Assembly (NCBI GenBank): GCA_964388265.1 | Contig: CAYLXZ010000014.1 | Span: forward strand, 1 to 16,150 | Direction of reading: 5' to 3' | Source of the DNA: Candidatus Micrarchaeota archaeon | GTDB taxonomy: Archaea > B1Sed10-29 | DNA length: 16,150 nucleotides | Shown here: positions 2,607-14,562 of the stretch, piece after piece | Numbering within the stretch: position 1 is the first letter of the stretch | Layout: the number at the start of each line of letters is the position of its first letter | Notes under the pieces: model-generated | What the model saw: only the letters and a program-made list of their open reading frames with translations | What the model was told of the DNA's origin: nothing | Databases searched by the model: none | Program-made: the position numbers and the translations under genes

Positions 2607-5600
2607 TTATTCCTCTACTTTTTCCTCTCTCACCTTTTTCATTACTTCTTCGGGGTCGCTGTGGTATCTTGAGATTATTCTTCCTACTTCTTCGAATTCT
2701 GTTATGTCTTTTTCCTGCATCCACTTTAATACGGCTGCTCTTCTTTGCATTTCGTCCCATACGCTTTCTTTTGTAACTCCTTTTTCTTCTTTAACTTCTT
2801 TTAGTATGTAGCTTTCTTCTGAGGAGAATTCGAAGTAGTCTTCTGAGGGTATGTAGGTGAATAGTTCGTTGGTTATTGGTCTTCCGGTGTCTAGGTCTAT
2901 GTCCACTATTTCTACTACTTTTCTTACTCTTCTTACGTCCATTCCTTCTACTTTTGCGAATCCCATTATCATAATGAGATCTAGGTGTTGGAGTAGTCCT
3001 GGGGATAGGTTGATAGGAGGTGTCTTTAATCTGTTTATTACGGCGTCTACGCTGTCTGCGTGGATAGTTGAGAGTCCTGGGTGTCCTGTGTTATGTAGCA
3101 TTATCCCTCCTGATCCTCCTATGAAGTTCTGGGGGCCTGGGATGTTTAAGTCGTATACTGGCTCTGGTTCTTCTAGTTTTATCTCTTCTATTTCTTTTAC
3201 TGGGTCTCCGTAGACTTCTTTATCTATTCTTCCGCTGGGTTTCTTCTCTCTTGTAAGATTTATCTCTTTGTTTATTGGGTTTATGTGTTCTTGGAATTTT
3301 TCCTGGTCTTCTCTGCTGTAGAATTCGACTTGGTATATGTTTTTTTCTTCTCTATGGTATTTATGGGCTACTATTCCGTATTGGAGTAACATATGCATCA
3401 CTTGGTCTGCTAGTTCTTCTGAAGAGGTTGAGTACTGGAAGTTTTTCCTTGTGCAGGATCCGTCTCCTGTCCATAGCGCGGATAGAAGTTCATTTATTTT
3501 TTCTTTGGATAACCCAAAGATGAATTGGGGTATGCGTTTTTCTTTTGATCCATGTCCACATTTTTGTTTTAGGAACTCGTAGATTACTTTATGGTTGAAT
3601 GCTAGTTCTATTGCGTCTCCGTATCCTCCTACTTTTCTTCTTGTTGGTTCTTTGCCTGTCACTGTCTTTATGCATTTCTCCATATCTTTTAATACATCTT
3701 CATCACTGTTGTATAGTTGTATAGTGTTGTTTTTTCGTGCTGTGTTTAGTGATCCTTCTGATATGTAGTATCCTATTAGTCTAAGTAGCTCTGGCGTTAT
3801 TTCTAGTTTTGCTGGGTGTTTCTCACTTCTTCTTTCGAATTTCACTTCTGTTTCTGCTGGGTCATTGGTTATTCCAGCTTTTTCTAGGAGTTTGAAGTAC
3901 TGTGGTGCTTTTAATGCTGATATTGTGTTTTCTCCGTAGTAGTCGGATATTGTGGCTACTTCTGCTGTGTCTCCTGCTTTTCTCCATCCTATTTTCTCTG
4001 AGGCTTTTTTAACGTATTTCGGTGCCTTGACTCTTACGTCTCCGAGTTCTTTCGCTAGATTTAGGTATTCTTTATCTGCGTATCCTGTAGGTGCTTTTGC
4101 GGGTACTGCTAGGTTTTCTCCTTCTTCTAGTTCCGTGGTTTGTTTTTCTTTTACTTCTCCTTTTTCTTTGACGAATACTGAGTGGTCTCCTGTTACTGTT
4201 ACTTCTCTTCCTGTTGCTGTTTTGATTTTGTAGAGTTTTCCTCTTGGTTCGTGTTCTACGCATGCTTTTATGGGCTTTATTTTAACTTTCTTTGTTTCTG
4301 GGTTGATTGAAAGTGTTTTGTATCCTTTGAGGTCTTTGTTTTTCAGTTTCTCTATTTGAATGTGTTCGGTTTTTCCCTCTGGGTTTATGACCATGACTTT
4401 TTCATTTCCTCTGAGTGATGCCATTCCTTGGAATAGGTTGTAGGCTTCTTCTCCTCTAACTTCTCCTACGATTATTTCGTCTGGTCTTTCTCTTAGTCCT
4501 GATTTTATTAGGTCGAACATGGATATTTCTCCTTTTTCTTCTCCTCTTGAACCTGTTGCTGTTGCTATCTTGCTTATCCAGTGTTCATGTGGGAGGCGAA
4601 TTTCGGGGGTGTCTTCTATGCTTAGTATTTTCCTGTCTCGTGGTAGGAACATGCTTAGGGAGTTTAGTGCTGCGGTTTTTCCTGTTGCTGTTCCTCCTGA
4701 GACTAGTGCGGAGTTTCTGTTTTCTATTGCGAGCCAGAGGTATGCTCCCATGAGGGCTGGGATGGTTCCGAAGTTCATTTGATCTATGATTGTTAGTGGT
4801 TCTTCCATGAATTTCCTGATTGTGAAGTTTGATCCTTTCATTGCTATTTCTTTTCCTGCTGCGTATGTGGCTTGTACTCTGGATCCGCCCGGTAGTGCTC
4901 CTTGTAGTAGTGGGTCTGCGACTGATATGTGTTTCCCGGTTCTTTGTGCGAGTTTTGTTACGAACCTGTCGAGTTCGTCGCTGTCTTCATAGACTAGATT
5001 GGTTTTTAGCGATCCTAGTCTTCTGTGGTATACGTATATTGGTATTCCTACTCCATCGCAGGATAGGTCTTCTAGATCTGGGTCGTGCATCAATGGCTCT
5101 ATTTTTTCTAGTCCTAGGAAGTTTCTGTATACGTAGTATAGTAGTTTATCGTACTGTGATTTGGTTAGCGAGATCTCGTAGTCTTTTATTACTTGTTCTA
5201 TTTTTTCATCTAGGTATTCTTTGACGTTTCCTTTCTCTGTTACTTTCATTAGGTTTACGTCTAGCACGTCTATGAGTATTTCGTTCACTCTGTCTAGTTT
5301 TTCTTCTTCTTCAGGTGTTAGTGGTGGTTCTAGCACGTTGTAGATGAGTCTTTCTTGGTCTTCGTTCCATTTTATCCTGGCGTATGCCCATGGTTTGATT
5401 AGTTCGTATCTTTTGTCCACGTCTTCTAGGTCTGGTGGTTCCCAGGTTGGTGTTATCTTTTTCTTTGTGGCTCCTGGTATGGATAGTAGTTGGTCTGGTC
5501 CTCCTTGGATTTCTTGTATGGATGTGGTGTTTTCTATTTTTCTTTTTGACTTTACTTTCCTGGTTACTTCGGGCCATTTCCACATTTCGGGTTTTTCTTC

Positions 5601-5867
5601 TCTTTTTTTCACTTCTTCTGGTTTTTCGAATCCTCCTTCCCCTTTCTTTTCATCCATCTCTTGATATAGTTGCTTGATTGTTTTTCCTTGTTCTTCTACT
5701 TGTTTCATTTCTTTTTTCTTTGGTTTTTCTGGGGTTTGTGGTCTTTGTTTTTCTTTTTCTTGTCTTTTTTTCTTTCTTTTGTTCATTTTCTCTATGAATT
5801 CATCGTGTTTTCTTTCGTTTTCTTGAATTTTCCTTCCTGCTTTCTTCATCACGTCTTTAAGCGTCAC
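2607..5867 (-). CDS. Type IV pilus assembly ATPase (VirB11/FlaI/CpaF family), intein-containing; about 643 aa after splicing
   Basis: Walker A GGTATGKT, Asp box SIEDTPEI, LRERPDEIIVGEVRG Walker B and His box TGHPGLSTIHA. GTG start preceded by GGTGA. Confidence 0.95.
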   Translation of the reverse strand: MTLKDVMKKAGRKIQENERKHDEFIEKMNKRKKKRQEKEKQRPQTPEKPKKKEMKQVEEQGKTIKQLYQEMDEKKGEGGFEKPEEVKKREEKPEMWKWPEVTRKVKSKRKIENTTSIQEIQGGPDQLLSIPGATKKKITPTWEPPDLEDVDKRYELIKPWAYARIKWNEDQERLIYNVLEPPLTPEEEEKLDRVNEILIDVLDVNLMKVTEKGNVKEYLDEKIEQVIKDYEISLTKSQYDKLLYYVYRNFLGLEKIEPLMHDPDLEDLSCDGVGIPIYVYHRRLGSLKTNLVYEDSDELDRFVTKLAQRTGKHISVADPLLQGALPGGSRVQATYAAGKEIAMKGSNFTIRKFMEEPLTIIDQMNFGTIPALMGAYLWLAIENRNSALVSGGTATGKTAALNSLSMFLPRDRKILSIEDTPEIRLPHEHWISKIATATGSRGEEKGEISMFDLIKSGLRERPDEIIVGEVRGEEAYNLFQGMASLRGNEKVMVINPEGKTEHIQIEKLKNKDLKGYKTLSINPETKKVKIKPIKACVEHEPRGKLYKIKTATGREVTVTGDHSVFVKEKGEVKEKQTTELEEGENLAVPAKAPTGYADKEYLNLAKELGDVRVKAPKYVKKASEKIGWRKAGDTAEVATISDYYGENTISALKAPQYFKLLEKAGITNDPAETEVKFERRSEKHPAKLEITPELLRLIGYYISEGSLNTARKNNTIQLYNSDEDVLKDMEKCIKTVTGKEPTRRKVGGYGDAIELAFNHKVIYEFLKQKCGHGSKEKRIPQFIFGLSKEKINELLSALWTGDGSCTRKNFQYSTSSEELADQVMHMLLQYGIVAHKYHREEKNIYQVEFYSREDQEKFQEHINPINKEINLTREKKPSGRIDKEVYGDPVKEIEEIKLEEPEPVYDLNIPGPQNFIGGSGGIMLHNTGHPGLSTIHADSVDAVINRLKTPPINLSPGLLQHLDLIMIMGFAKVEGMDVRRVRKVVEIVDIDLDTGRPITNELFTYIPSEDYFEFSSEESYILKEVKEEKGVTKESVWDEMQRRAAVLKWMQEKDITEFEEVGRIISRYHSDPEEVMKKVREEKVEE
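3090..4418 (-). mobile_element. Intein with LAGLIDADG homing endonuclease (443 aa, residues 484-926)
   Basis: Begins SLRGNEKV (Ser1). Has block B VTVTGDHSVF, LAGLIDADG-like LIGYYISEGS and LSALWTGDGS, block F VYDLNI and C-terminal MLHN followed by Thr+1. Removing it restores FQGMA-TGH. Confidence 0.93.
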
Positions 5868-6300
5868 AGTCTCTCACCAGTTTCACGTTTGTTTGGGTTG
5901 AGTTTGTTTTGTTGAAGGTCATGCATCTTTCTCCTGGGAGTGCTTCTCCTGTTGCGTTGATCCAGCTGCATTTTAGCTGGGGTTTTAGGGTGCTGGTTTC
6001 TGTTCTTCTTGGGGATGATACGTTGACTAGTACTTCGTTGTTTTGGCATTCTAGTTCTACTGTGTATCCTTGTTCTATGAGTGGGAGGTGTAGTCTTTTT
6101 TGTATGGTTGTGTTGTATTCGTACATCATCCTCAGGCCCTGTGTAAGTGTATCTGCTGTGTGTTGTGCTATTTTCTCTATTTTTTCTTGGTGTAGTGATT
6201 TTCTCACGGAGTCTGCTTCGGCTTGTATCGTGAAGAAGGCTGCTGTTAGGATTACTCCCATTATTGCGTATCTTATGGTCACGGAAACACTTACTACCAT
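5857..6300 (-). CDS. Minor pilin-like / single-TM protein of the pilus operon
   Basis: N-terminal hydrophobic stretch followed by an amphipathic helix and a beta-rich domain with four Cys. Its stop overlaps the ATPase start. No basic leader precedes the hydrophobic segment. Confidence 0.7.
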   Translation of the reverse strand: MVVSVSVTIRYAIMGVILTAAFFTIQAEADSVRKSLHQEKIEKIAQHTADTLTQGLRMMYEYNTTIQKRLHLPLIEQGYTVELECQNNEVLVNVSSPRRTETSTLKPQLKCSWINATGEALPGERCMTFNKTNSTQTNVKLVRDCDA

Positions 6301-6391
6301 TTTGTTTTAACCTTGGGTTTTTTCTCTTTGTTTCGTGTGTGTAATTAAAGGTGTTTCCCATAAATAGTTTTTCCTTTATTGGGGTGGTTTT

Positions 6392-6451
6392 TCAGCAGAA
6401 GTCAATGCTTACTATTGGTGTTCCGTTTTGGCTTATGCCTTGTTTTTCTAT
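6392..6451 (-). pseudogene. Orphan copy of the 3' end of the LamG adhesin gene (...IEKQGISQNGTPIVSIDFC*)
   Basis: 6392-6431 matches 9200-9239 at 39/40 nt, and the match is about 53/60 over 6392-6451 vs 9200-9259. It includes the stop codon. Confidence 0.85.
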
Positions 6452-6472
6452 GGTTATAGGAATGGTATTTAA

Positions 6473-6935
6473 CTTTTGACTGAGAAATCCTTGGGCTTCA
6501 GCCTAATGGATGAATCAGCCAATGTATTGAGGAGCATAATGATTTAAAAAGGCTGTGGGTTAATTGTAATTAACTGAAGGCCGTTGGAAAAGAATTAAGT
6601 ATTGTTAGTTCCTAATAAAATACGAGTGGTTGGATCTGCTCGGGATATGGGAAAGCCTCAAGTTCTCAAGCTGGATGAGAGCATCAGAGCAGTGGAGAAT
6701 AAATCCTTCACTGAACATAGATAGCCTCTTCTCATATTGAGGGTGCTGTGACAGCGCCCGAAACCATTACTGTTGACCCAGTTCCCTGTATATCAAAGCT
6801 GACGAGGTAGATGGTAACCGTAAATGGTGAGCGTCTCACCACCACAGAGATGTGGTTTTCCATCAGGTAACTCGAAACCAAATGATACGAGTGAATAGAT
6901 GGAAGCCCCGACCTTCAGGTCGGGGAGGATGTCAC
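6473..6935 (+). mobile_element. Non-autonomous IS200/IS605-family element (463 bp, no TnpA or TnpB ORF)
   Basis: Preceded by TTTAA. Left-end hairpin TTGACTGA-GAA-ATCCTTGGGC-TTCA-GCCTAATGGAT-GAA-TCAGCCAA (6476-6522). Right end GGAAGCCCCGACC-TTCA-GGTCGGGGAGGATGTCAC (6901-6935) is typical of tnpB-element right ends. A second copy of the ends at 8335-8380 supports the boundaries. Confidence 0.8.
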
Positions 6936-6955
6936 GTAGATCCAAAGGTTTAAAT
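6741..6955 (+). ncRNA. Putative TnpB omegaRNA-like structured RNA (scaffold to 6935 plus about 20-nt flank-derived guide)
   Basis: Stems at GGGTGCTG/CAGCGCCC (6741-6759); GATGG/CCATC (6810-6864) enclosing GGTGAG/CTCACC and ACCACA-GAGA-TGTGGT; ACTCG/CGAGT (6870-6892); and the terminal right-end hairpin. The 5' boundary is uncertain. Confidence 0.5.
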
Positions 6956-6956
6956 A
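6943..6956 (+). promoter_or_regulatory. Archaeal BRE/TATA promoter for the AAA ATPase gene
   Basis: CAAAGG-TTTAAATA, an identical 14-mer to 8419-8432. Confidence 0.7.
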
Positions 6957-6969
6957 CCAAGTCCACTTT

Positions 6970-7033
6970 AATTGAGATGTTGTTAATAATAACCGACCTG
7001 AAATTGAGATATTATGAATAATAACCGACCTGA
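6970..7033 (+). repeat. Tandem 2 x 32-bp repeat spanning the AAA ATPase start codon
   Basis: AATTGAGATgttgttAATAATAACCGACCTGA and AATTGAGATattatgAATAATAACCGACCTGA, 29/32 identical. Confidence 0.9.
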
Positions 7034-8252
7034 TCCTTATATTGAGAGGGATTTAGAGAAGAAGCTTGAGAAGTACCTGGATGATCCTGAAATACTTGCA
7101 GTGATAGGTCCCAGGCAGTCAGGGAAAACCACTTTACTCCAGCATATTCAATCTAACCTAGAGAAAGCTAATTTCACTACTTTTGAAGACATGAAGACCC
7201 TGGAGTTATTTGAAGAGGATATAGATGGTTTTATTGAGCAAAATGTAGAGGGTTACAACTATTTATTTATAGATGAAGTTCAGTACTCGGAGAAGGCGGG
7301 TAAGAACCTGAAGTATATTTATGATACTAAAGATATTAAGATTCTGGTAACTGGTTCTTCATCCACGGAGCTGTCTTTCAGGGGACTTAAACATCTTACT
7401 GGAAGGGTTTTGGTGTTCCATTTATATCCTCTGTCCTTCAGAGAGTACCTTAGATTCAAGGATAACCGTCTCTATAGTTCTATAGAGAAGAAGAAACCTT
7501 CAGAACCTATTATAAAGGAAATTTTACCTTACTTTAAGGACTTCGTTCTCTATGGAGGGTACCCGAGGATCGCTCTTGAGGATGATGACTCCAAGAAGGA
7601 GAAGATTCTGGAGGATATCTATAATATCTTCATGTTAAGGGAAATCCAGGAGACGCTGGGTATAAAGGATAGGGTGAAGTTATCTAAACTTCTGAGGACT
7701 CTGTCTCTGCAGATAGGTAACTTAGTTAACTATAATAAGCTCTCTGATGCCACGGGCTACACTTATAGTAAGCTGAAGAGTAAGTTGAATATACTGCAGG
7801 AGACATTCATTTGTAGCGAGGTGGATCCTTTCTATACAAATAAGAAAAAGGAGATTGTGAAGAACCCGAAGATCTTTTTCTTTGATAATGGTCTTCGGAA
7901 CTCCGTGATCGGGAACTTCTCCAAGGAAAGGTCGGATATGGGAGAGCTTTATGAGAACTTCGTGTTCACGGAGTTGGTTAAAGAAGGGTTTGAACCTCGT
8001 TTTTGGAGGTCTAAGGATAAGGCGGAGGTTGACTTCGTAATTGAGAGAGATGGTGAGGTTGTTCCTATTGAGGTTAAGAATACTCTGCATAAAGAGAGGT
8101 TGACTAAATCGTTCACCAGTTTCTTAAGGAGCTATGAACCGGAGAGAGGTTACTTTCTCTCTAAGGACCTCATGGGTGAAAAGGGCTTTAAGGATACGGA
8201 TGTAGAGTACTTCCCTGCATTCTATTTGCATTGGGTGCTTGATAGGTTTTAG
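7014..8252 (+). CDS. AAA+ ATPase, COG1373 type (AAA_14 + DUF4143) with C-terminal PD-(D/E)xK nuclease-like domain
   Basis: Walker A GPRQSGKTT, Walker B LFIDEVQ, VTGSS, LTGR, LYPLSFREY, YGGYP, KIFFFDNG, LYENFV and EVDFV...IEVK. Confidence 0.92.
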   Translation: MNNNRPDPYIERDLEKKLEKYLDDPEILAVIGPRQSGKTTLLQHIQSNLEKANFTTFEDMKTLELFEEDIDGFIEQNVEGYNYLFIDEVQYSEKAGKNLKYIYDTKDIKILVTGSSSTELSFRGLKHLTGRVLVFHLYPLSFREYLRFKDNRLYSSIEKKKPSEPIIKEILPYFKDFVLYGGYPRIALEDDDSKKEKILEDIYNIFMLREIQETLGIKDRVKLSKLLRTLSLQIGNLVNYNKLSDATGYTYSKLKSKLNILQETFICSEVDPFYTNKKKEIVKNPKIFFFDNGLRNSVIGNFSKERSDMGELYENFVFTELVKEGFEPRFWRSKDKAEVDFVIERDGEVVPIEVKNTLHKERLTKSFTSFLRSYEPERGYFLSKDLMGEKGFKDTDVEYFPAFYLHWVLDRF

Positions 8253-8281
8253 TGGTTTTTCTAGCAGAACCGATGCTTACT
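8252..8281 (+). repeat. Degenerate copy of the adhesin 3'-end motif
   Basis: GTGGTTTTTCTAGCAGAACCGATGCTTACT compared with GTGGTTTTTCAGCAGAAGTCAATGCTTACT (6384-6413) and CAGCAGAAGTCGATGCTTACT (9201-9221). Confidence 0.75.
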
Positions 8282-8334
8282 TTCTTTAGGTGTAAAAACC
8301 AGTGGTTTACTAACTGTAGTTAACAGAATGTTAA

Positions 8335-8380
8335 CTTTTGGCTGAGAAATCCTTGGGCTTCAGCCCGGGGAGGACGTCAC
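8335..8380 (+). mobile_element. 46-bp minimal IS200/IS605 derivative (PATE-like left-end/right-end hybrid)
   Basis: CTTTTGGCTGAGAAATCCTTGGGCTTCAGCC matches 6473-6503 with 1 mismatch. It is fused to CGGGGAGGACGTCAC, which matches 6921-6935 with 1 mismatch. Preceded by GTTAA. Confidence 0.82.
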
Positions 8381-8418
8381 GTGGAGATAGAAAATAGGTT
8401 TTTTTACCCCTGGTAATG

Positions 8419-8452
8419 CAAAGGTTTAAATAGAAGTATGAATAAATCATAC
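8419..8452 (+). promoter_or_regulatory. BRE/TATA promoter plus inverted-repeat operator of the AbrB-VapC operon
   Basis: CAAAGGTTTAAATA (8419-8432) followed by GTATGA-ATAAA-TCATAC (8436-8452). Confidence 0.7.
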
Positions 8453-8495
8453 CTAGAGTATAACTAGATGGTTAACCCCAAACAGCTTTCAGGGA

Positions 8496-8765
8496 GTGAT
8501 TTACTTGAAATTAAAGAGAAAAGTAGGGCAGAAGGGTCAGGTCGTCATCCCTAAGGACCTGCGTGAAGAAGAGAACATCAGACCAAACACAAAAGTCTAC
8601 TTCACGAAACGAGACCATGAGATAGTGATAAAGAAACCTAGGAAGAACTTATCTGACCTGTTCAAAGAGATGTCTGAAGAAGAGATGGAAAAGAAGCCTA
8701 AGTCCTCAGATGAATCCTATGAACAGGAAATGAAGGAAAGAGCGGAGAAAGCAGGGATTGAATGA
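8496..8765 (+). CDS. AbrB/MazE/SpoVT-family antitoxin (VapB-like)
   Basis: RKVGQKGQVVIPKDLREEENI swapped-hairpin motif. ATGA overlap with the PIN gene. Confidence 0.9.
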   Translation: MIYLKLKRKVGQKGQVVIPKDLREEENIRPNTKVYFTKRDHEIVIKKPRKNLSDLFKEMSEEEMEKKPKSSDESYEQEMKERAEKAGIE

Positions 8766-9175
8766 CCTACTTAGATGCGAATATCTTCGTTAAAGCGGAG
8801 AACCCTAAAGATGAGGATTATTCAGAGGCTCTGGAGATTCTGGAGCGGATTGAAGCCGGGGAAATAAGATGCTGTACCTCGGTATTAACCGTAGACGAAG
8901 TAGTGTACAATATAAGTAGAGTTAGAGGCAAGAGGAGAGCAAGGGAAACCTGGAGAATCTTAATAGAGGAACCTAACCTGGATTTAATTCCCTTAAGTGA
9001 ACTGGATATGGATTCCGCTAAAGAGTTCTACCCAGAGCTTGATCCCAGGGACTGTATCCATGCCCAGGCCTATATAAAATCTGGAACTGATTTCTTTGTA
9101 ACAGAGGATGAGGATTTTGATGAGATCCAGGTTATAAACAATGTTTCAGTTTCAGAGTTTTCCGAAGAGTTTTAG
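8762..9175 (+). CDS. vapC: PIN-domain VapC-family toxin
   Basis: Acidic catalytic motifs YLDANIF, TVDEV, DPRDCIH and TEDEDFD. Translationally coupled to the AbrB gene. Confidence 0.9.
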   Translation: MTYLDANIFVKAENPKDEDYSEALEILERIEAGEIRCCTSVLTVDEVVYNISRVRGKRRARETWRILIEEPNLDLIPLSELDMDSAKEFYPELDPRDCIHAQAYIKSGTDFFVTEDEDFDEIQVINNVSVSEFSEEF

Positions 9176-9199
9176 AGAGATAGATTTTTTAGCGTCCGC

Positions 9200-11572
9200 T
9201 CAGCAGAAGTCGATGCTTACTATTGGTGTTCCGTTTTGGGTGATGTTTTGTTTTTTGATTAGTACGCTTGTTCTTTTTGCGGTTTTTCCTTGTATGCATT
9301 GTCCTTGCCATGTTAGGTTTATGTTGGGGTAGCATAGTGCTATTTCTGCTGTTCCTGGTCCTCCTGTTGCTCCTTTGTATACGTTTGTGTATTCGCTTTC
9401 TTTTTTGAGCAGTATTCCGGTGTAGCTGTCTCGTATGTAGTTTGATTCTTCTGTGCATGTGGTTGAGATGTTTTCTTCTTGTTCTTCTCCTAGGGTTGTG
9501 TCTGTTTGGTAGAGTTCTTGTATCTCGGTGTCACTCAATGTTCTGCTGTGTATCTTGGTGTTGTCTATGGAGCCGTTTAGGTTGTATGTTCCGTCTTGTC
9601 TGGCTCCGATGTATCCGTTGGTTGTGGTGGTGATTGGTATCCATGCTTCTTCTGTTGTGAAGTTCCATGTTGGGCTTGTGGTTGTGTCTGTGCTGTCGTT
9701 TGCTGTGGCGTACCAGTTGTATGTGGTTTCTGGGTTTAGGTTTAGGTTGTTTGTTGTTGCTGTGGATCCGTTTTCTACGTTGTTTATTTTCTGGATTTGT
9801 GTTCCGTTGTTCCAGTAGAAGGTTATGTTCATTGTGTCTCCGTCTGGGTCTGTGGCGTTCACGCTTAGGTTTGTGGTTGTTGATACTGTTGTTGCTCCGT
9901 TGTTTGGGCTTGGGTCTGAGGGGGCGTTTGGCCCTTCGCCTCCTGTTGTTTCTTTTGTTCCAAGCACTGGATCTGTATCTGGCTGTGTCTCGTTGTACAG
10001 TTCCTCTATCTCGGTGGCTGATAAGCTACGGTTGTAGATGCGCACATCGTCGATGGAGCCGTTGAAGTATCTTTGATTGTCCGCTGCATCTGCCCCGATA
10101 TAATCACTTGTCTTACTTGGTGTGCCAATGGTGGATTTTGAAGTTGAATTAACCTGGACGCCATTTTTGTAAAGGAATATTTGGGTTCCGTTCCAGATCC
10201 CTACCCAATGATTCCACACATTATTCGAGACATCGGCTTGGATGTTTGTCCCATCATGGTGTAGTTGAAAAGCTCCGTCTCCCCAATCACCAAGTACTAT
10301 ATTATTGTTTGAATAGAGGGCGAAGATTTCATCTAAGTCTCCATCGGAAACCGAGTCATGCTTTGACCAAACAGAAAGAGAGTAACTAGAAAATTGGCTA
10401 AAGGAACCGATATCCACGTAGTCGTCAGAACCATCGAATTGGTATCCTTTGTTTACCTGTCCGTCTGTGAATCGAGCAGAGTCAAACGCCGTGGATCCAG
10501 AATCTTCGTTTAGTCGCCATTGTCCGACTAACCCGTCTCTTGGTCCCCACTCCGTGCCGTTACTGGAGTTATAGATTTCCTCGATTTCTGATTGGTTCAG
10601 GGCACGGTCGTAGATGCGGACATCGTCTATGGAACTATTAGAGAAGCTACTGTCGCCTCGGTCTGAGCCTATATACACAACGCCAGTGTCTGTAACTGTT
10701 TGGCTTCCGCTTACCCCTCCTGACTTGACTTCTGTTCCATTAACGTATATTTTTAGGGTAACAGGGTCTTGGTCATCTGCAGAGAAACAGAGATGTTTCC
10801 AGGTACCCTGCCAATTTGAAGGAACATCATACTGCAATCCATCGTCACTCCATTCAAAATTTATCTCACCAGCACTTCCATGGGGTTGTCCCCATCCAAA
10901 TCCAGTATTATGACTTCCATCTGGTCTAAATCTCATCTCTATACTGTTGTCTTCTGTGGTAGTATCGAAACTAGGATTAATCCAGGTGCAGAAGGCAAGC
11001 CCATTATCAGTATTATCCAGACTCATAGAAGAAGTTTCCACGTAGTCGTCAGAACCGTCGAAGTCGTATGCTTTGTCGATGATTCCGGTTATGTTTTGTG
11101 TTGCTCCGTTGTTGGTTCCGTCGTTTGCTCCGTTGTGTGTGCCGTTGTTTTGGTTGATTGGGTCCCATGTTTCTGTTTGTGGGTTGTTTTCGTCTAGTGT
11201 CCAGTGTGATACGAGTCCGTTTGGTTTCTGTGGGCAGCTTTTTCTGTTGTTCAGTGTGTCGTATAGGCATGCTTCGGTGGATCCGTTTTGCCCTACTACT
11301 GTGTCTGTGTCGTTGTTGTAGAATAGTGCGTTGGCGTCGGGTACTCCGTACAGCATTTCGTTGTCTGTGTTTCCGTCTATGTCGCTCGTTGTAGAAAGAT
11401 TCAAAGGCAGGGTCAACGAAGAGTTACTGCCGGTTATATCTCTAGTGTAGTTGTATTCTGTGCCACCAACACTATATGACAAGCCCGCTCCGGACAGTAG
11501 GATCACTGACATTAGGATCAGGGTTAGTGAAATGTGTTTTACCTTTTTTCTACTTGGTTTGTTTTTATCCAT
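9200..11572 (-). CDS. Secreted/surface adhesin: signal peptide, two LamG-like (concanavalin A) domains, FN3/Ig-like module, partial LamG and Cys-containing C-terminal tail
   Basis: Basic N-region plus hydrophobic core. Two copies of LV.(H/Q)W.L.E...FDGSDDYV...SIDDVRIY.R.L...EIEE(I/L)Y. Module PNAPSDPSP...DPDGD...TTYNWY...WNFTT. Many N-x-S/T sequons. AGGAGA RBS. Confidence 0.88.
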   Translation of the reverse strand: MDKNKPSRKKVKHISLTLILMSVILLSGAGLSYSVGGTEYNYTRDITGSNSSLTLPLNLSTTSDIDGNTDNEMLYGVPDANALFYNNDTDTVVGQNGSTEACLYDTLNNRKSCPQKPNGLVSHWTLDENNPQTETWDPINQNNGTHNGANDGTNNGATQNITGIIDKAYDFDGSDDYVETSSMSLDNTDNGLAFCTWINPSFDTTTEDNSIEMRFRPDGSHNTGFGWGQPHGSAGEINFEWSDDGLQYDVPSNWQGTWKHLCFSADDQDPVTLKIYVNGTEVKSGGVSGSQTVTDTGVVYIGSDRGDSSFSNSSIDDVRIYDRALNQSEIEEIYNSSNGTEWGPRDGLVGQWRLNEDSGSTAFDSARFTDGQVNKGYQFDGSDDYVDIGSFSQFSSYSLSVWSKHDSVSDGDLDEIFALYSNNNIVLGDWGDGAFQLHHDGTNIQADVSNNVWNHWVGIWNGTQIFLYKNGVQVNSTSKSTIGTPSKTSDYIGADAADNQRYFNGSIDDVRIYNRSLSATEIEELYNETQPDTDPVLGTKETTGGEGPNAPSDPSPNNGATTVSTTTNLSVNATDPDGDTMNITFYWNNGTQIQKINNVENGSTATTNNLNLNPETTYNWYATANDSTDTTTSPTWNFTTEEAWIPITTTTNGYIGARQDGTYNLNGSIDNTKIHSRTLSDTEIQELYQTDTTLGEEQEENISTTCTEESNYIRDSYTGILLKKESEYTNVYKGATGGPGTAEIALCYPNINLTWQGQCIQGKTAKRTSVLIKKQNITQNGTPIVSIDFC

Positions 11573-13386: not shown

Positions 13387-13818
13387 TTAAGTTATTTCTT
13401 CTTTTATCTTTCCCATGAGTTTTTCCGCTTGTTTGATTGTTTTCTTTGCTTCGGATCTAGACACGGTTTCCGGTTCATCGTAGACAGTGGCATGTCTTCT
13501 TTTCCTTACCCTGTCAAATAGATTTATCGTAGATTGGTCAAAGGTTTCTTGGAAGCATTGTAGGAACTGTACGGTTGATAGATGTTTGTGCGGTCCTTTT
13601 GGCCTGTATCCTTTGCTGTACATGTAGGCTCTTGATGCTTGTAGCATTGCATTGTACGATGTGATTAGAACCCAGTCGTAGTCTTCATTCTTGAATAGGT
13701 CTTTCGTGGTTTCCAAATCTCTTTCAGCTATTTCAAGAGTTTTTAATGGTTTTCTTTCATTGGTTTTCAGCTTGCTTATCTTGTCTTGTTTCAAGAGTTT
13801 TTCTAAATTCATCTTCAT
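13387..13818 (-). CDS. HEPN-domain protein (COG1895-like)
   Basis: AERDL...SYNAMLQASRA...GYRP...H and RKRRHATVY. Overlaps the upstream MNT gene. Confidence 0.85.
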   Translation of the reverse strand: MKMNLEKLLKQDKISKLKTNERKPLKTLEIAERDLETTKDLFKNEDYDWVLITSYNAMLQASRAYMYSKGYRPKGPHKHLSTVQFLQCFQETFDQSTINLFDRVRKRRHATVYDEPETVSRSEAKKTIKQAEKLMGKIKEEIT

Positions 13819-14377
13819 CCCCTTTGAGCATTATTATTTCTTGTTTAGCGATTTCCCTTAGTAGCGTTATCTTTTTCTTTGCTTTTTCTTTGAATTCGCT
13901 CTCCGTCCACAGTATGTAGTTTATTTCCCTTCCTGTTTCTTCTTCAAGTTCCATTATGGTTCTGTGTAGTTCTTTCTCAGGTGTTTTACCTATGAGGAGG
14001 AGGTCTATGTCACTCGCTTTCTCCTCTTTTCCTTTTGCGAAGCTTCCGTATATCAAGGCGTATTTTATCCTGTTATAGTTCTTTAGTTTCTTTTTCAGTG
14101 TCTTCCCAGTTCTCTGTGTTTTTATGTAGATTTTTCTAAGGTCGTTGTATATTGGTGATTCTTTGTTGACGCTGTATAGTGTTAGGTTTCCCTTCTTTTT
14201 CTTCTTTACTAACTTTGCTTCTTTAAGTTTAGTTAATTCTTTTTTTGCGTGGGATGGATTGGTGTTGGTTTTTCTGGATATCTCTCTTAGGTGGTACTCT
14301 TTCTCTGGGTTGAATAGTAGTTTTTCCAGGAGTTTTGCTCTTGTTTTGGAGGTGAATAGTTTCTCGATCATAAACAT
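13757..14377 (-). CDS. wHTH (ArsR-like) plus minimal nucleotidyltransferase, partner of the HEPN protein
   Basis: LFTSKTRAKLL...YHLREISR...KELTKLKEAKLV wHTH and YGSFAKG...SDIDLLLIG MNT motif. Start is ATG 14377 or 14371; the longer ORF-track start runs through the promoter. Confidence 0.9.
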   Translation of the reverse strand: MFMIEKLFTSKTRAKLLEKLLFNPEKEYHLREISRKTNTNPSHAKKELTKLKEAKLVKKKKKGNLTLYSVNKESPIYNDLRKIYIKTQRTGKTLKKKLKNYNRIKYALIYGSFAKGKEEKASDIDLLLIGKTPEKELHRTIMELEEETGREINYILWTESEFKEKAKKKITLLREIAKQEIIMLKGDEDEFRKTLETRQDKQAENQ

Positions 14378-14438
14378 CAACTGTATAATTTTTCCATACA
14401 ACTGTATAATTTTTGTGTACAAAGTATATAAGCCTTTC
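14378..14438 (-). promoter_or_regulatory. BRE/TATA promoter and tandem 21-bp operator repeats of the MNT-HEPN operon
   Basis: Minus-strand GAAAGG-CTTATATA (14425-14438). Plus-strand CAACTGTATAATTTTTccaTA and CAACTGTATAATTTTTgtgTA (14378-14419). Confidence 0.75.
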
Positions 14439-14562
14439 ACTTTTAACGATTATTTCAATCGCTCTGACTACAAAAATTAAAATTATTTATGTTTGAGCCT
14501 TTGTCTTGTGATTTCTTCGAATCCTTGGCAGATCACAGGTTCTTTTGTTTGAATCTTCGAGT

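Follow-up and report, generated by a model that had tools for sequence, protein, structure and literature searches.

How did a 2.8-kb insert come to lie, on the opposite strand, between a Laminin_G adhesin gene and the next gene of a pilus operon? In the window, the whole stretch of 16,150 nucleotides analysed here, this insert consists of two units, one carrying an AAA_14-DUF4143 ATPase and the other an AbrB-VapC pair, and the units are delimited by three copies of the adhesin tail, called A, B and C in what follows. The best reading of the locus is that cassettes without a recombinase have accumulated in tandem at an att site formed by the tail of the gene.

The locus and its two units

The genes that frame the insert lie on the reverse strand: the adhesin gene is ORF 9200-11572, with three Laminin_G_3 domains, and the native downstream gene of the operon, at 5857-6300 in the ORF list, encodes 147 aa and directly adjoins an adhesin-type gene in relatives. 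Both units are transcribed away from the adhesin gene; each holds a single gene or operon, and they measure about 1.4 kb (unit 1) and 0.94 kb (unit 2). The region is covered without a single difference by Logan contigs of run X1, one of which, 2402 nt long, spans 7907-10200, and run X2, a second sample of the same study, has contigs across the junction between copy A and the first IS-type element (6418-6690) and across that between the ATPase gene and copy B (8009-8287): together they rule out a misassembly. A preliminary description of this DNA had listed the repeats, the IS-type ends, the promoter motif and the cargo, and each of them is present where it had been placed. It had also seen neither integrase nor transposase in the window and, indeed, none of the 15 ORFs scanned matches such families.

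Unit 1 carries a candidate defence gene on the forward strand at 7014-8252, an ATPase of 412 aa with AAA_14 and DUF4143 domains (Pfam E values 2.8e-31 and 2.1e-39). Its best outside homologue is 63% identical, it matches the PADLOC candidate PDC-S01 with an E value of 5.1e-87, and its stop codon overlaps copy B. Unit 2 has the layout of a type II toxin-antitoxin (VapBC-like) system: an antitoxin of AbrB/MazE type and fold (8496-8765, forward strand, 89 aa; PF04014, E 7.8e-12) lies directly upstream of a PIN-domain toxin of VapC type (8762-9175, forward strand, 137 aa; PF01850, E 3.9e-15), the two ORFs overlapping by 4 nt, with the start of the toxin over the stop of the antitoxin. The stop of the toxin gene lies about 25 nt before copy C, and a word-based search for VapC homologues returned only the query itself. 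The cargo is thus of defence or toxin-antitoxin type, as had been proposed. Its composition would count as foreign, judging from a coding-strand AT skew of 0.008 for the ATPase and 0.088 for VapC, at the 8th and 11th percentiles among 308 long ORFs.

Each unit also has a BRE/TATA-like box, a putative promoter, on the forward strand: that of unit 1 is at 6943-6956, 8 nt past the right end of an IS-type element, and that of unit 2 at 8419-8432. The motif CAAAGGTTTAAATA occurs exactly twice in the window, at 6943 and 8419, where 0.01 occurrences are expected. The common layout of the two units is largely forced, since the leader is the sole non-coding DNA of each unit on the ORF map.

Three copies of the adhesin tail

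Copy C, on the reverse strand at 9200-9255, is the live tail of the adhesin gene, as given by the ORF list, the repeat alignment and the domain search. Copy A, at 6384-6447, is a displaced tail whose positions 6392-6447 match 9200-9255 with 91% identity over 56 nt. The third repeat had already been recognised as the live end of the adhesin gene, which stands, while the length then given to the repeat, about 30 nt, has to be replaced by the 56 nt of the match between A and C. The segment GTGGTTTTTC at 6384-6393 belongs to the native DNA that follows the stop.

Translated on the reverse strand, copy A ends in IEKQGISQNGTPIVSIDFC and a stop, and the live tail in IKKQNITQNGTPIVSIDFC and a stop, so that copy A retains an open, tail-like frame. 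The mismatches between A and C are clustered: there is one within the first 40 nt, as against four at offsets 40-47. If the tail had decayed in place, this pattern and the open frame would be less expected than if it had crossed over with the tail of a diverged homologue; at two positions, copy A is closer than copy C to the tails of the family, which is weak evidence.

Between the units, at 8252-8282, lies copy B, a degenerate tail copy of the form GTGGTTTTTC-T-AGCAGAA-CC-GATGCTTACT. Its Smith-Waterman score against copy A is 38, while shuffled inserts have a mean score of 20.1 (sd 2.2) and none of 500 reaches 38; the comparison of B with C alone is weaker, with a score of 28 that three of the 500 shuffles reach.

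Comparison with another strain and with relatives

Run X4, a brine metagenome from another study, contains a strain about 86-90% identical to ours in the flanks of the insert (differences at 47 of 481, 29 of 221, 34 of 237 and 20 of 184 positions). One of its contigs, 1402 nt long with a depth of 19.6, reads 6418-6472, then 6936-8260, a single T, and 9202-9222. Unit 1 is thus present, and unit 2 is missing from tail copy to tail copy, the joint between 8260, the T and 9202 being at the repeat; the X4 contigs leave 8707-9040 uncovered. Since X4 holds unit 1 alone, with its joint at the repeat, unit 2 is a module in its own right, and the repeat marks its limits. This evidence comes from one contig of one run, with 21 letters past the unit-2 joint, and rare variants are lost from Logan contigs. 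The difference is either a gain here or a loss in X4.

The unit-1 cassette of X4 differs from ours at 33 of 1325 positions, an identity of 97.5%, against 86-90% in the flanks. This contrast marks the units as separate modules, and suggests that the unit-1 cassette has been exchanged between lineages. Between copy B and the tail there are three differences in 20 positions; because the adjacent cassette is only 2.5% diverged between the strains, this suggests that the differences arrived with unit 2, that is, that unit 2 may have brought its own att.

In all, 16 other genomes of the class have homologues of the 147-aa pilus gene. At 14 of these 16 loci, a homologue of the adhesin-type C-terminus ends about 0-160 nt from the pilus gene, leaving an empty site, which was read directly in one genome (G003). 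The ancestral state would accordingly have been two adjacent pilus genes. These 14 relatives, which belong to different genera, have no cassette at the site. The proposal that cassettes are gained or lost singly at a fixed, repeat-bounded site agrees with unit 1 standing alone in X4 and with the empty sites of the relatives; of the variable content predicted among strains, one strain pair provides an instance, and the 14 loci of other genera provide none. Neither a circular junction nor a fully empty site, both of which had been proposed as things to look for, was seen in the contigs of X1-X4.

Two IS200/IS605-type elements

Unit 1 contains a non-autonomous element of IS200/IS605 type, 463 nt long (6473-6935, forward strand), without tnpB, inserted 3' of TTTAA, with a hairpin at its left end and an omega-RNA/HgcC-like right end. 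Unit 2 has just 46 nt of this IS family (8335-8380, forward strand), a left end joined directly to a right end in the manner of a PATE. The left ends, 6469-6503 and 8331-8365, are 97% identical over 35 nt, the right ends, 6913-6940 and 8358-8385, 86% over 28 nt, and TTAA precedes both copies. The genome has just these two copies of the left end.

The assignment rests on several features of the 463-nt element. It matches HgcC at 6739-6943 with 35.8 bits and an E value of 3.6e-5, below the gathering score of 50; its RNA fold has a z-score of -5.6, and its hairpins are visible in both sequence and fold. The right-end motif recurs at 72 loci, whose flanks diverge immediately after GTCAC; at 11 of the 72, tnpB lies just upstream on the same strand (distant query, E<=1e-5). 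The element itself has no similarity to TnpB. Insertion 3' of a short motif, with neither target-site duplication nor terminal inverted repeats, subterminal hairpins, and a right end with a TnpB guide-RNA scaffold (the HgcC match below the gathering score) are PATE/MITE-like properties. The search for tnpA and tnpB elsewhere, which the preliminary description had called for, found three tnpB genes in the genome; a Y1 (HUH) transposase that could act in trans (PF01797) has no match in the assembled genome, which is 82% complete.

In the X4 contig, the 463-nt element is absent: the joint 6472/6936 has no ambiguity and no added letters, TTTAA being followed directly by GTAGATCC. The element thus moves on its own ends, since X4 carries unit 1 with the element precisely absent. 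Both elements are derivatives of the IS200/IS605 family (TnpB omega-RNA/HgcC type) inserted at TTAA, and they are passengers, not cassette heads. The box of unit 1 falls within the would-be guide stretch of the omega-RNA, and a resident TnpB could police or regulate the cassette, since this guide would cover the box.

How the units may have been inserted

We consider it somewhat probable that the cassettes were inserted successively, by crossover within the tail, by a site-specific recombinase acting in trans, the IS elements being separate TTAA insertions in the cassette leaders. The enzyme is assumed rather than seen, because the assembled genome has neither a recombinase nor another copy of the tail core. 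Tyrosine recombinases (PF00589) have no match at E<=1 in the 82%-complete genome or among the 15 ORFs of the window, serine recombinases (PF00239) have none in the assembled genome, of the same completeness, and the same holds for further copies of the tail core. A 20-mer search of the metagenome contigs gives only two chance matches, and a class-wide search for matches to the att site stays at background level.

Unit 1 would have come first, carrying its own tail copy of about 60 nt from another lineage, and its arrival would have displaced the native tail, the present copy A. Unit 2 would have come later, as a piece of about 0.94 kb with a diverged 20-nt tail copy (AGCAGAA-CC-GATGCTTACT). 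A crossover within AGCAGAA, the 7 nt that it shares with the gene-proximal copy, would then have left copy B, and rebuilt the live tail, copy C.

A more doubtful account does without a recombinase: small circles or linear pieces bearing a tail would be integrated by the host's own recombination, either by a Campbell-type single crossover or by homology-facilitated illegitimate recombination anchored in the adhesin gene, and would be lost again through exchange between the direct repeats. It draws support from an 82%-complete genome with no recombinase of the common families, and from the repeat of unit 1, which is long (about 56-66 nt) and mosaic. A second islet of the genome, on contig C10, bears on both accounts: a single ATPase gene lies there between copies of the aEF-1beta tail that agree over 32 nt with 100% identity. 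As another case of insertion at a gene tail, it supports the account with a recombinase in trans. Its repeat is unrelated to the adhesin tail, so one recombinase with one specificity cannot explain both islets; two islets at gene tails unrelated to each other, whose repeats measure 20, 32 and 56 nt, fit a sequence-independent mechanism. However, uninterrupted identity at the unit-2 repeat is limited to blocks of 7 and 10 nt, with an indel between them, which is short for strand exchange, and the account leaves unexplained how a cassette first acquired a copy of the tail.

It is quite improbable that the insert is what remains of a single larger virus or plasmid that had integrated and then lost its integrase, with copy B and the two-unit appearance produced secondarily, by internal deletion or by chance. 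Copies A and C do flank the whole 2.8 kb as attL and attR would, and integrated elements commonly lose their integrase; but the similarity of copy B, with its 500 shuffles, exceeds chance, the X4 joint is exactly at B/C with unit 1 kept, and the insert has no match in plasmid or phage records.

The suggestion that the hairpin ends head the cassettes and are used by a Y1 (HUH) transposase in trans, or by an integron-type integrase, could invoke IS ends of one family in the same relative place and orientation in both units, their absence from the rest of the genome and the three tnpB genes, but it is largely refuted and highly improbable, given a unit 1 in X4 cut exactly at the IS ends, unit boundaries (8261/9201) that do not coincide with the IS ends (8335/8380), a genome with neither Y1 transposase nor IntI, three tail copies with no common fold, and a BRE/TATA-like box in each unit.

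Relation to known systems

The preliminary description did not recognise a described system here, but the kind is in print (PMC3146451, PMC10872708): tandem accretion at gene-end repeats is known from CIMEs and from additive islands in which the end of a tRNA gene or of ssrA recurs. In Dehalococcoides, islands follow one another after the ssrA gene, and about 20 bp of its 3' end stand as a direct repeat at the limits of each; their content varies between strains, and some units without integration genes are read as cis-mobilizable via accretion (PMC3146451). The present units resemble them in all these respects: repeats of a gene 3' end, stacking, strain-variable content and units without integration genes. 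They differ in that many of those islands are large and have a serine-recombinase integration module (DsiB), whereas ours measure 0.94 and about 1.4 kb with no recombinase found in the genome, and in their target, ssrA there and the protein-coding tail of a pilin/adhesin gene in a small-genome archaeon here. Similarly, the flexible genomic island fGI-2 of 'Ca. Methylopumilus' is described as additive, with the final 20 bp of tRNA-Lys recurring in it (PMC10872708); its target is a bacterial tRNA gene, and ours the tail of a protein gene, whose displaced copy keeps a coding-like frame.

As in CIMEs, the units are flanked by direct repeats of a gene 3' end, their cargo is limited to the ATPase and AbrB-VapC, and in the one X4 contig, from one run, a unit is gained or lost independently at the repeats. 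A cognate element bearing an integrase at the same att site was found neither in the genome, nor in the metagenome contigs, nor among the class-wide matches.

Integrons, including archaeal ones (bioRxiv 10.1101/2022.02.06.479319), likewise gather small cassettes into an array at a single site, and their cargo includes toxin-antitoxin and defence-type genes. The integron-like reading first given to this locus nevertheless fails: no IntI adjoins the array and no attI was found; the three inter-unit stretches share no single-strand DNA fold of attC type (z-scores -2.2/-2.1 for B, -0.8/-1.1 for A and +0.4/+0.2 for C); the cassettes, unlike those of integrons, which mostly lack promoters, share one orientation and are read from a promoter of the platform, each have their own box with putative promoter activity; and the repeat reproduces the tail of a host gene.

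The passengers, for their part, resemble IS200/IS605 elements of IS1341 type, omega-RNA/HgcC and PATEs (PMC4615843): the right-end hairpin has a UUCA loop, there are HgcC-like matches, insertion occurs by a short motif without target duplication, and left and right ends are fused as in haloarchaeal PATEs. They differ in that they contain neither tnpB nor tnpA, that the 82%-complete genome has no tnpA at all, and that they travel as passengers of cassettes instead of moving them.

Gene tails as possible docking sites

A broader conjecture, which we regard as unlikely but worth stating, is that in small-genome archaea lacking a recombinase of their own, gene tails may be open sites at which minimal gene circles, each bearing a promoter, can dock. 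These cells would collect genes as integrons do, without IntI or attC, via a 7-bp core and an enzyme borrowed from host, virus or plasmid, or via the cell's own recombination. If this is true, the present locus would show the system at work, since a related strain lacks one of the two cassettes and the cassette that it does have is much better conserved than the DNA on either side.

Structure of the locus

The locus is a small additive island: the tail of an adhesin gene has accreted two cassettes, which carry IS200/IS605 remnants as passengers. The window covers almost the whole of its contig, one of the 45 contigs of a 726 kb assembly that is 82% complete; the phylum and class of the host count only 31 species genomes. 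The minus strand is an archaeal pilus-type operon, with two T2SSF genes, a T2SSE/PilB-type ATPase gene with an intein (2607-5867), a 147-aa gene (5857-6300) and, upstream of the insert, the genes of two Laminin_G proteins, one of 790 aa with three Laminin_G_3 domains (9200-11572), the other of 358 aa. The intein, inserted past residue ~500 of the ATPase, has a LAGLIDADG domain.

The tail of the adhesin gene, copy C at 9200-9255, is repeated at 6392-6447 as copy A, over 56 nt with 91% identity. Copy B, at 8252-8282, is shorter and degenerate: its score against copy A is 38, a value reached by none of 500 shuffles (mean 20.1). Between the tail copies lie two plus-strand units. Domain matches of the Pfam type identify an AAA_14 and DUF4143 ATPase in unit 1 (7014-8252, plus strand), and unit 2 contains an AbrB/MazE-type antitoxin and an overlapping PIN toxin (8496-9175, plus strand). 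Both units have the same layout, namely a leader with TTAA at its end, then DNA from one IS family, and finally the exact 14-mer CAAAGGTTTAAATA, which occurs twice in the window for 0.01 copies expected. The cassettes measure 0.9-1.4 kb, each with its own putative promoter, a BRE/TATA-like box. Every element listed in the preliminary description is found in the window.

This structure is real and well delimited. Since Logan contigs from two samples cover it without differences, an independent tiling of the region, misassembly is ruled out; a simple tandem duplication is ruled out by the unrelated cargos of the two units. The runs that contain the stretch are sediment and brine metagenomes, with no RNA run among those listed.

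The ATPase matches the PADLOC candidate PDC-S01, and DUF4143 has been placed among the PD-(D/E)XK families (PMC3424549). A word-based search for homologues of the VapC toxin returned only the toxin itself, and the whole insert, compared in distant mode with plasmid and phage records, had no match. Around nine homologous ATPase genes of the phylum, a scan for flanking direct repeats gave a single 14-nt match, with a sensitivity low enough to miss the A/B repeat of the window itself. The start region of the ATPase is covered by a 32-nt tandem duplication (6970-7033, 91%): its first copy holds an ATG and a short dead frame, and the real start, at 7014, is in the second. Toxin-antitoxin-type genes are plentiful on this contig, with more AbrB-like reading frames close to its end, and a HEPN/nucleotidyltransferase pair at 13387-14440 (minus) and 15881-16344 (plus) matches the PADLOC candidates PDC-M05B and PDC-M05A.

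Comparison with a related strain

A brine metagenome from another study, run X4, contains a strain that shares 86-90% identity with the window in the flanks (47/481, 29/221, 34/237 and 20/184 differences). One of its contigs, 1402 nt long, joins [6418-6472] to 6936-8260, then a single T, then 9202-9222; its depth of 19.6 is close to that of the flank contigs (24.4 and 17.6). The structure is that of one contig in one run, with only 21 letters past the unit-2 joint.

Two segments are missing from this contig. The first is the 463-nt element of unit 1, absent to the base: the joint 6472|6936 has no ambiguity and leaves TTTAA|GTAGATCC, within an IS-free allele that reads TTTAA followed by GTAGATCCAAAGG. 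The IS is therefore a discrete mobile unit, and the joint is a signature of the IS200/IS605 type, with no target duplication and a fixed short left motif. The second is unit 2, missing from tail copy to tail copy, with positions 8707-9040 left without cover in all of X4; the repeats delimit unit 2 as a module of its own. The comparison thus fixes the unit boundaries to the base, and parts two layers of mobility: the accretion of cassettes at the tail, and the insertion of IS200/IS605 elements at TTAA.

The unit-1 cassette itself differs at 33 of 1325 positions, an identity of 97.5% that is far above that of the flanks. Because the cassette is so much more conserved than its surroundings, the sequences suggest that it moved between the lineages, or into both, after their split, and reached the same landing site. 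The assembly behaviour suggests that the tail is present twice in the X4 strain, as identical copies of ~66 nt starting with GTGGTTTTT: three X4 contigs stop within the repeat, at offset 26 on both right-hand sides and at ~21 on the left.

The IS200/IS605-type elements

The element of unit 1 is strongly folded (463 nt, z -5.6), and no tnpB remnant is found in it at E<=10. Positions 6739-6943 match the Rfam model HgcC with 35.8 bits (E 3.6e-5), short of the gathering score of 50. A study of IS1341-type tnpB transcripts ties HgcC to the UUCA hairpin at the right end of tnpB elements, and reports transcribed fusions of left and right ends, called PATEs, in haloarchaea (PMC4615843). The element of unit 2 is a 46-nt fusion of left end and right end. 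A second HgcC match, over copy B (8252-8393, 21.3 bits, E 0.29), was judged to be due to the right-end hairpin.

A search of the species genomes gave 72 exact matches to the right-end motif CTTCAGNNCGGGGAGGANGTCAC, most of them archaeal. Where a set has several copies, the sequences part right after GTCAC, and a distant TnpB query finds tnpB directly upstream on the same strand at 11 of the 72 loci. The left end has no further copy in its own genome; its 22-mer is absent, with up to 3 mismatches, from the 30 other genomes of the class, and has no exact match in the genome contig collection or in viral contigs. Loci with the same right-end motif bear no convincing likeness to it.

Why, then, is the IS at the same place in both units? 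The insert has 27 TTAA sites per strand, and the leader is the sole non-coding DNA of each unit; since an insertion in the cargo would destroy it, insertion is tolerated mostly in the leader, and the shared layout reflects mostly this tolerance. The shared orientation is a one-in-two chance. The family has only two copies in this genome, and their closeness, 1.9 kb, suggests local spread or joint arrival.

Past the right end, 3 nt after GTCAC, the window has the 9-nt GATCCAAAG, which at the same offset also follows a related full-length tnpB element of another uncultured archaeon; coincidence, a common preference for the target or an extended right end would account for it. In runs X1-X4, depth within 6870-7036 rises to 63 over the right-end hairpin, and many contigs match 6901-6935 only and diverge on both sides, so the hairpin is abundant in other organisms of these communities. 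The would-be omega-RNA guide, 6936-6956, just past the right end (GTAGATCC...), extends into the ATPase's BRE/TATA-like box. Judging from the sequence, a TnpB loaded with the unit-1 RNA would target the IS-free allele, as in run X4, and the cassette promoter.

The empty site in relatives

Sixteen further genomes of the class have a homologue of the 147-aa gene. At 14 of the 16 loci fetched, a homologue of the adhesin C-terminal domain ends ~0-160 nt from it; one locus, in genome G003, was read base by base as ISIDFC and a stop, then 147 nt, then the next gene. Since these 14 loci are without it, the 2.8-kb insert is particular to this lineage. The relatives belong to other genera, their flanking protein being 35-39% identical within the family: what they document is the empty ancestral state of the site rather than turnover between strains. 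In another relative (G005:C24), just past the end of an adhesin-type gene, the tail and the first post-stop bases are tandemly repeated (GATTTCTGTTAAGAAATT, 3 nt, GATTTCTGCTAAGAAATT). The arrangement resembles a pair of att copies that enclose nothing, possibly the scar of a lost cassette.

Other repeat-bounded loci in the genome

Contig C10 has a second islet, in which the aEF-1beta tail occurs as two perfect 32-nt copies (711-742 and 2249-2280) with a lone ATPase gene between them; just a synonymous codon and a different stop set the second copy apart from the live end. This repeat is unrelated in sequence to the adhesin tail, and the islet has no IS remnant; near-palindromic ATTGTCCASACAAT boxes stand at both inner ends. 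Farther along C10, identical 46-nt hairpin copies with a UUCA-type loop (CCCCTGGTTTCAGCCAGGGG, then AGGAAGGCTC) at 21453-21498 and 23601-23646 enclose 2.1 kb with a KaiC-like gene and a 311-aa gene; they may be another small repeat derived from an IS end. On contig C7, at 7329-10917, direct repeats come in two pairs (54 nt with 89% identity, 39 nt with 92%), ~2.65 kb apart. They enclose small genes that lie between paralogous membrane-protein genes and resemble a RelE-type pair and a HEPN/nucleotidyltransferase pair.

What moves the cassettes

The tail copies themselves bear on the crossover. Copy A still has an open tail-like frame, ending in IEKQGISQNGTPIVSIDFC and a stop. Its mismatches with copy C are clustered, one in the first 40 nt and four at offsets 40-47, and such a mosaic is more readily explained by crossover of homologous tails that had diverged than by in-place decay. 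Copy A, rather than C, is closer to the family tails at two positions, which weakly supports a history in which A would be the displaced native tail and the live tail would have arrived with unit 1. Copies A and B have the native GTGGTTTTTC in common, after which copy B reads T-AGCAGAA-CC-GATGCTTACT, with three differences in 20 nt. Because the adjoining cassette diverged by only 2.5% between the strains, these differences were most likely brought in by unit 2, whose exchange would then fall in the 7-nt block AGCAGAA.

GTGGTTTTTC was also considered as an RNA stem and rejected: it is native DNA downstream of the stop, and relative G003 has a run of A past its stop as well. The tail 20-mer has only two matches in metagenome contigs, both chance matches in unrelated contexts on large contigs; class-wide, the tail core with up to 3 mismatches gives scattered single matches in 7 other genomes, against 2 control matches, a background level.

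The AGCAGAA block looks more like the crossover core of a site-specific system than like a substrate of homologous recombination, and we lean, by a modest degree, towards a site-specific recombinase supplied in trans. The genome, at 82% completeness, has three tnpB genes and no match to a tyrosine recombinase, a serine recombinase or a Y1 transposase. The main rival, an insertion of cassettes driven by homology, agrees with the mosaic of the tails but less well with the short block, and seems unlikely. The movement by an HUH enzyme using IS hairpins, proposed in the preliminary description, is largely excluded: the unit ends do not match the IS ends, and unit 1 does not need the IS, since the X4 contig has the one without the other. 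Stepwise gain or loss at one site is borne out by the two units at the adhesin tail and by the X4 strain with unit 1 only, but the IS elements once taken for cassette heads are passengers. The integron reading fails as well: the defining features of an archaeal integron are IntI and attC sites that fold (bioRxiv 10.1101/2022.02.06.479319), whereas this locus has neither integrase nor attC fold, and each unit has its own predicted promoter.

Additive islands are a known kind, and the crossover enzyme here is putative. Tandem units bounded by gene-end repeats are shared with Dehalococcoides, whose islands have 20-bp repeats of the ssrA end at their bounds, some being read as cis-mobilizable (PMC3146451); in Methylophilaceae, an additive island has repeats of the last 20 bp of tRNA-Lys and units down to one gene (PMC10872708). 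In the literature, with incomplete journal coverage, we found no description of such islets in Nanohaloarchaeota-type or DPANN genomes. The locus could serve as a test case for which enzyme performs the crossover where the genome shows no recombinase. It illustrates, in compact form, how very small archaeal genomes acquire genes for defence and for toxin-antitoxin systems: a surface-protein gene has the cassettes docked at its tail and remains undamaged.
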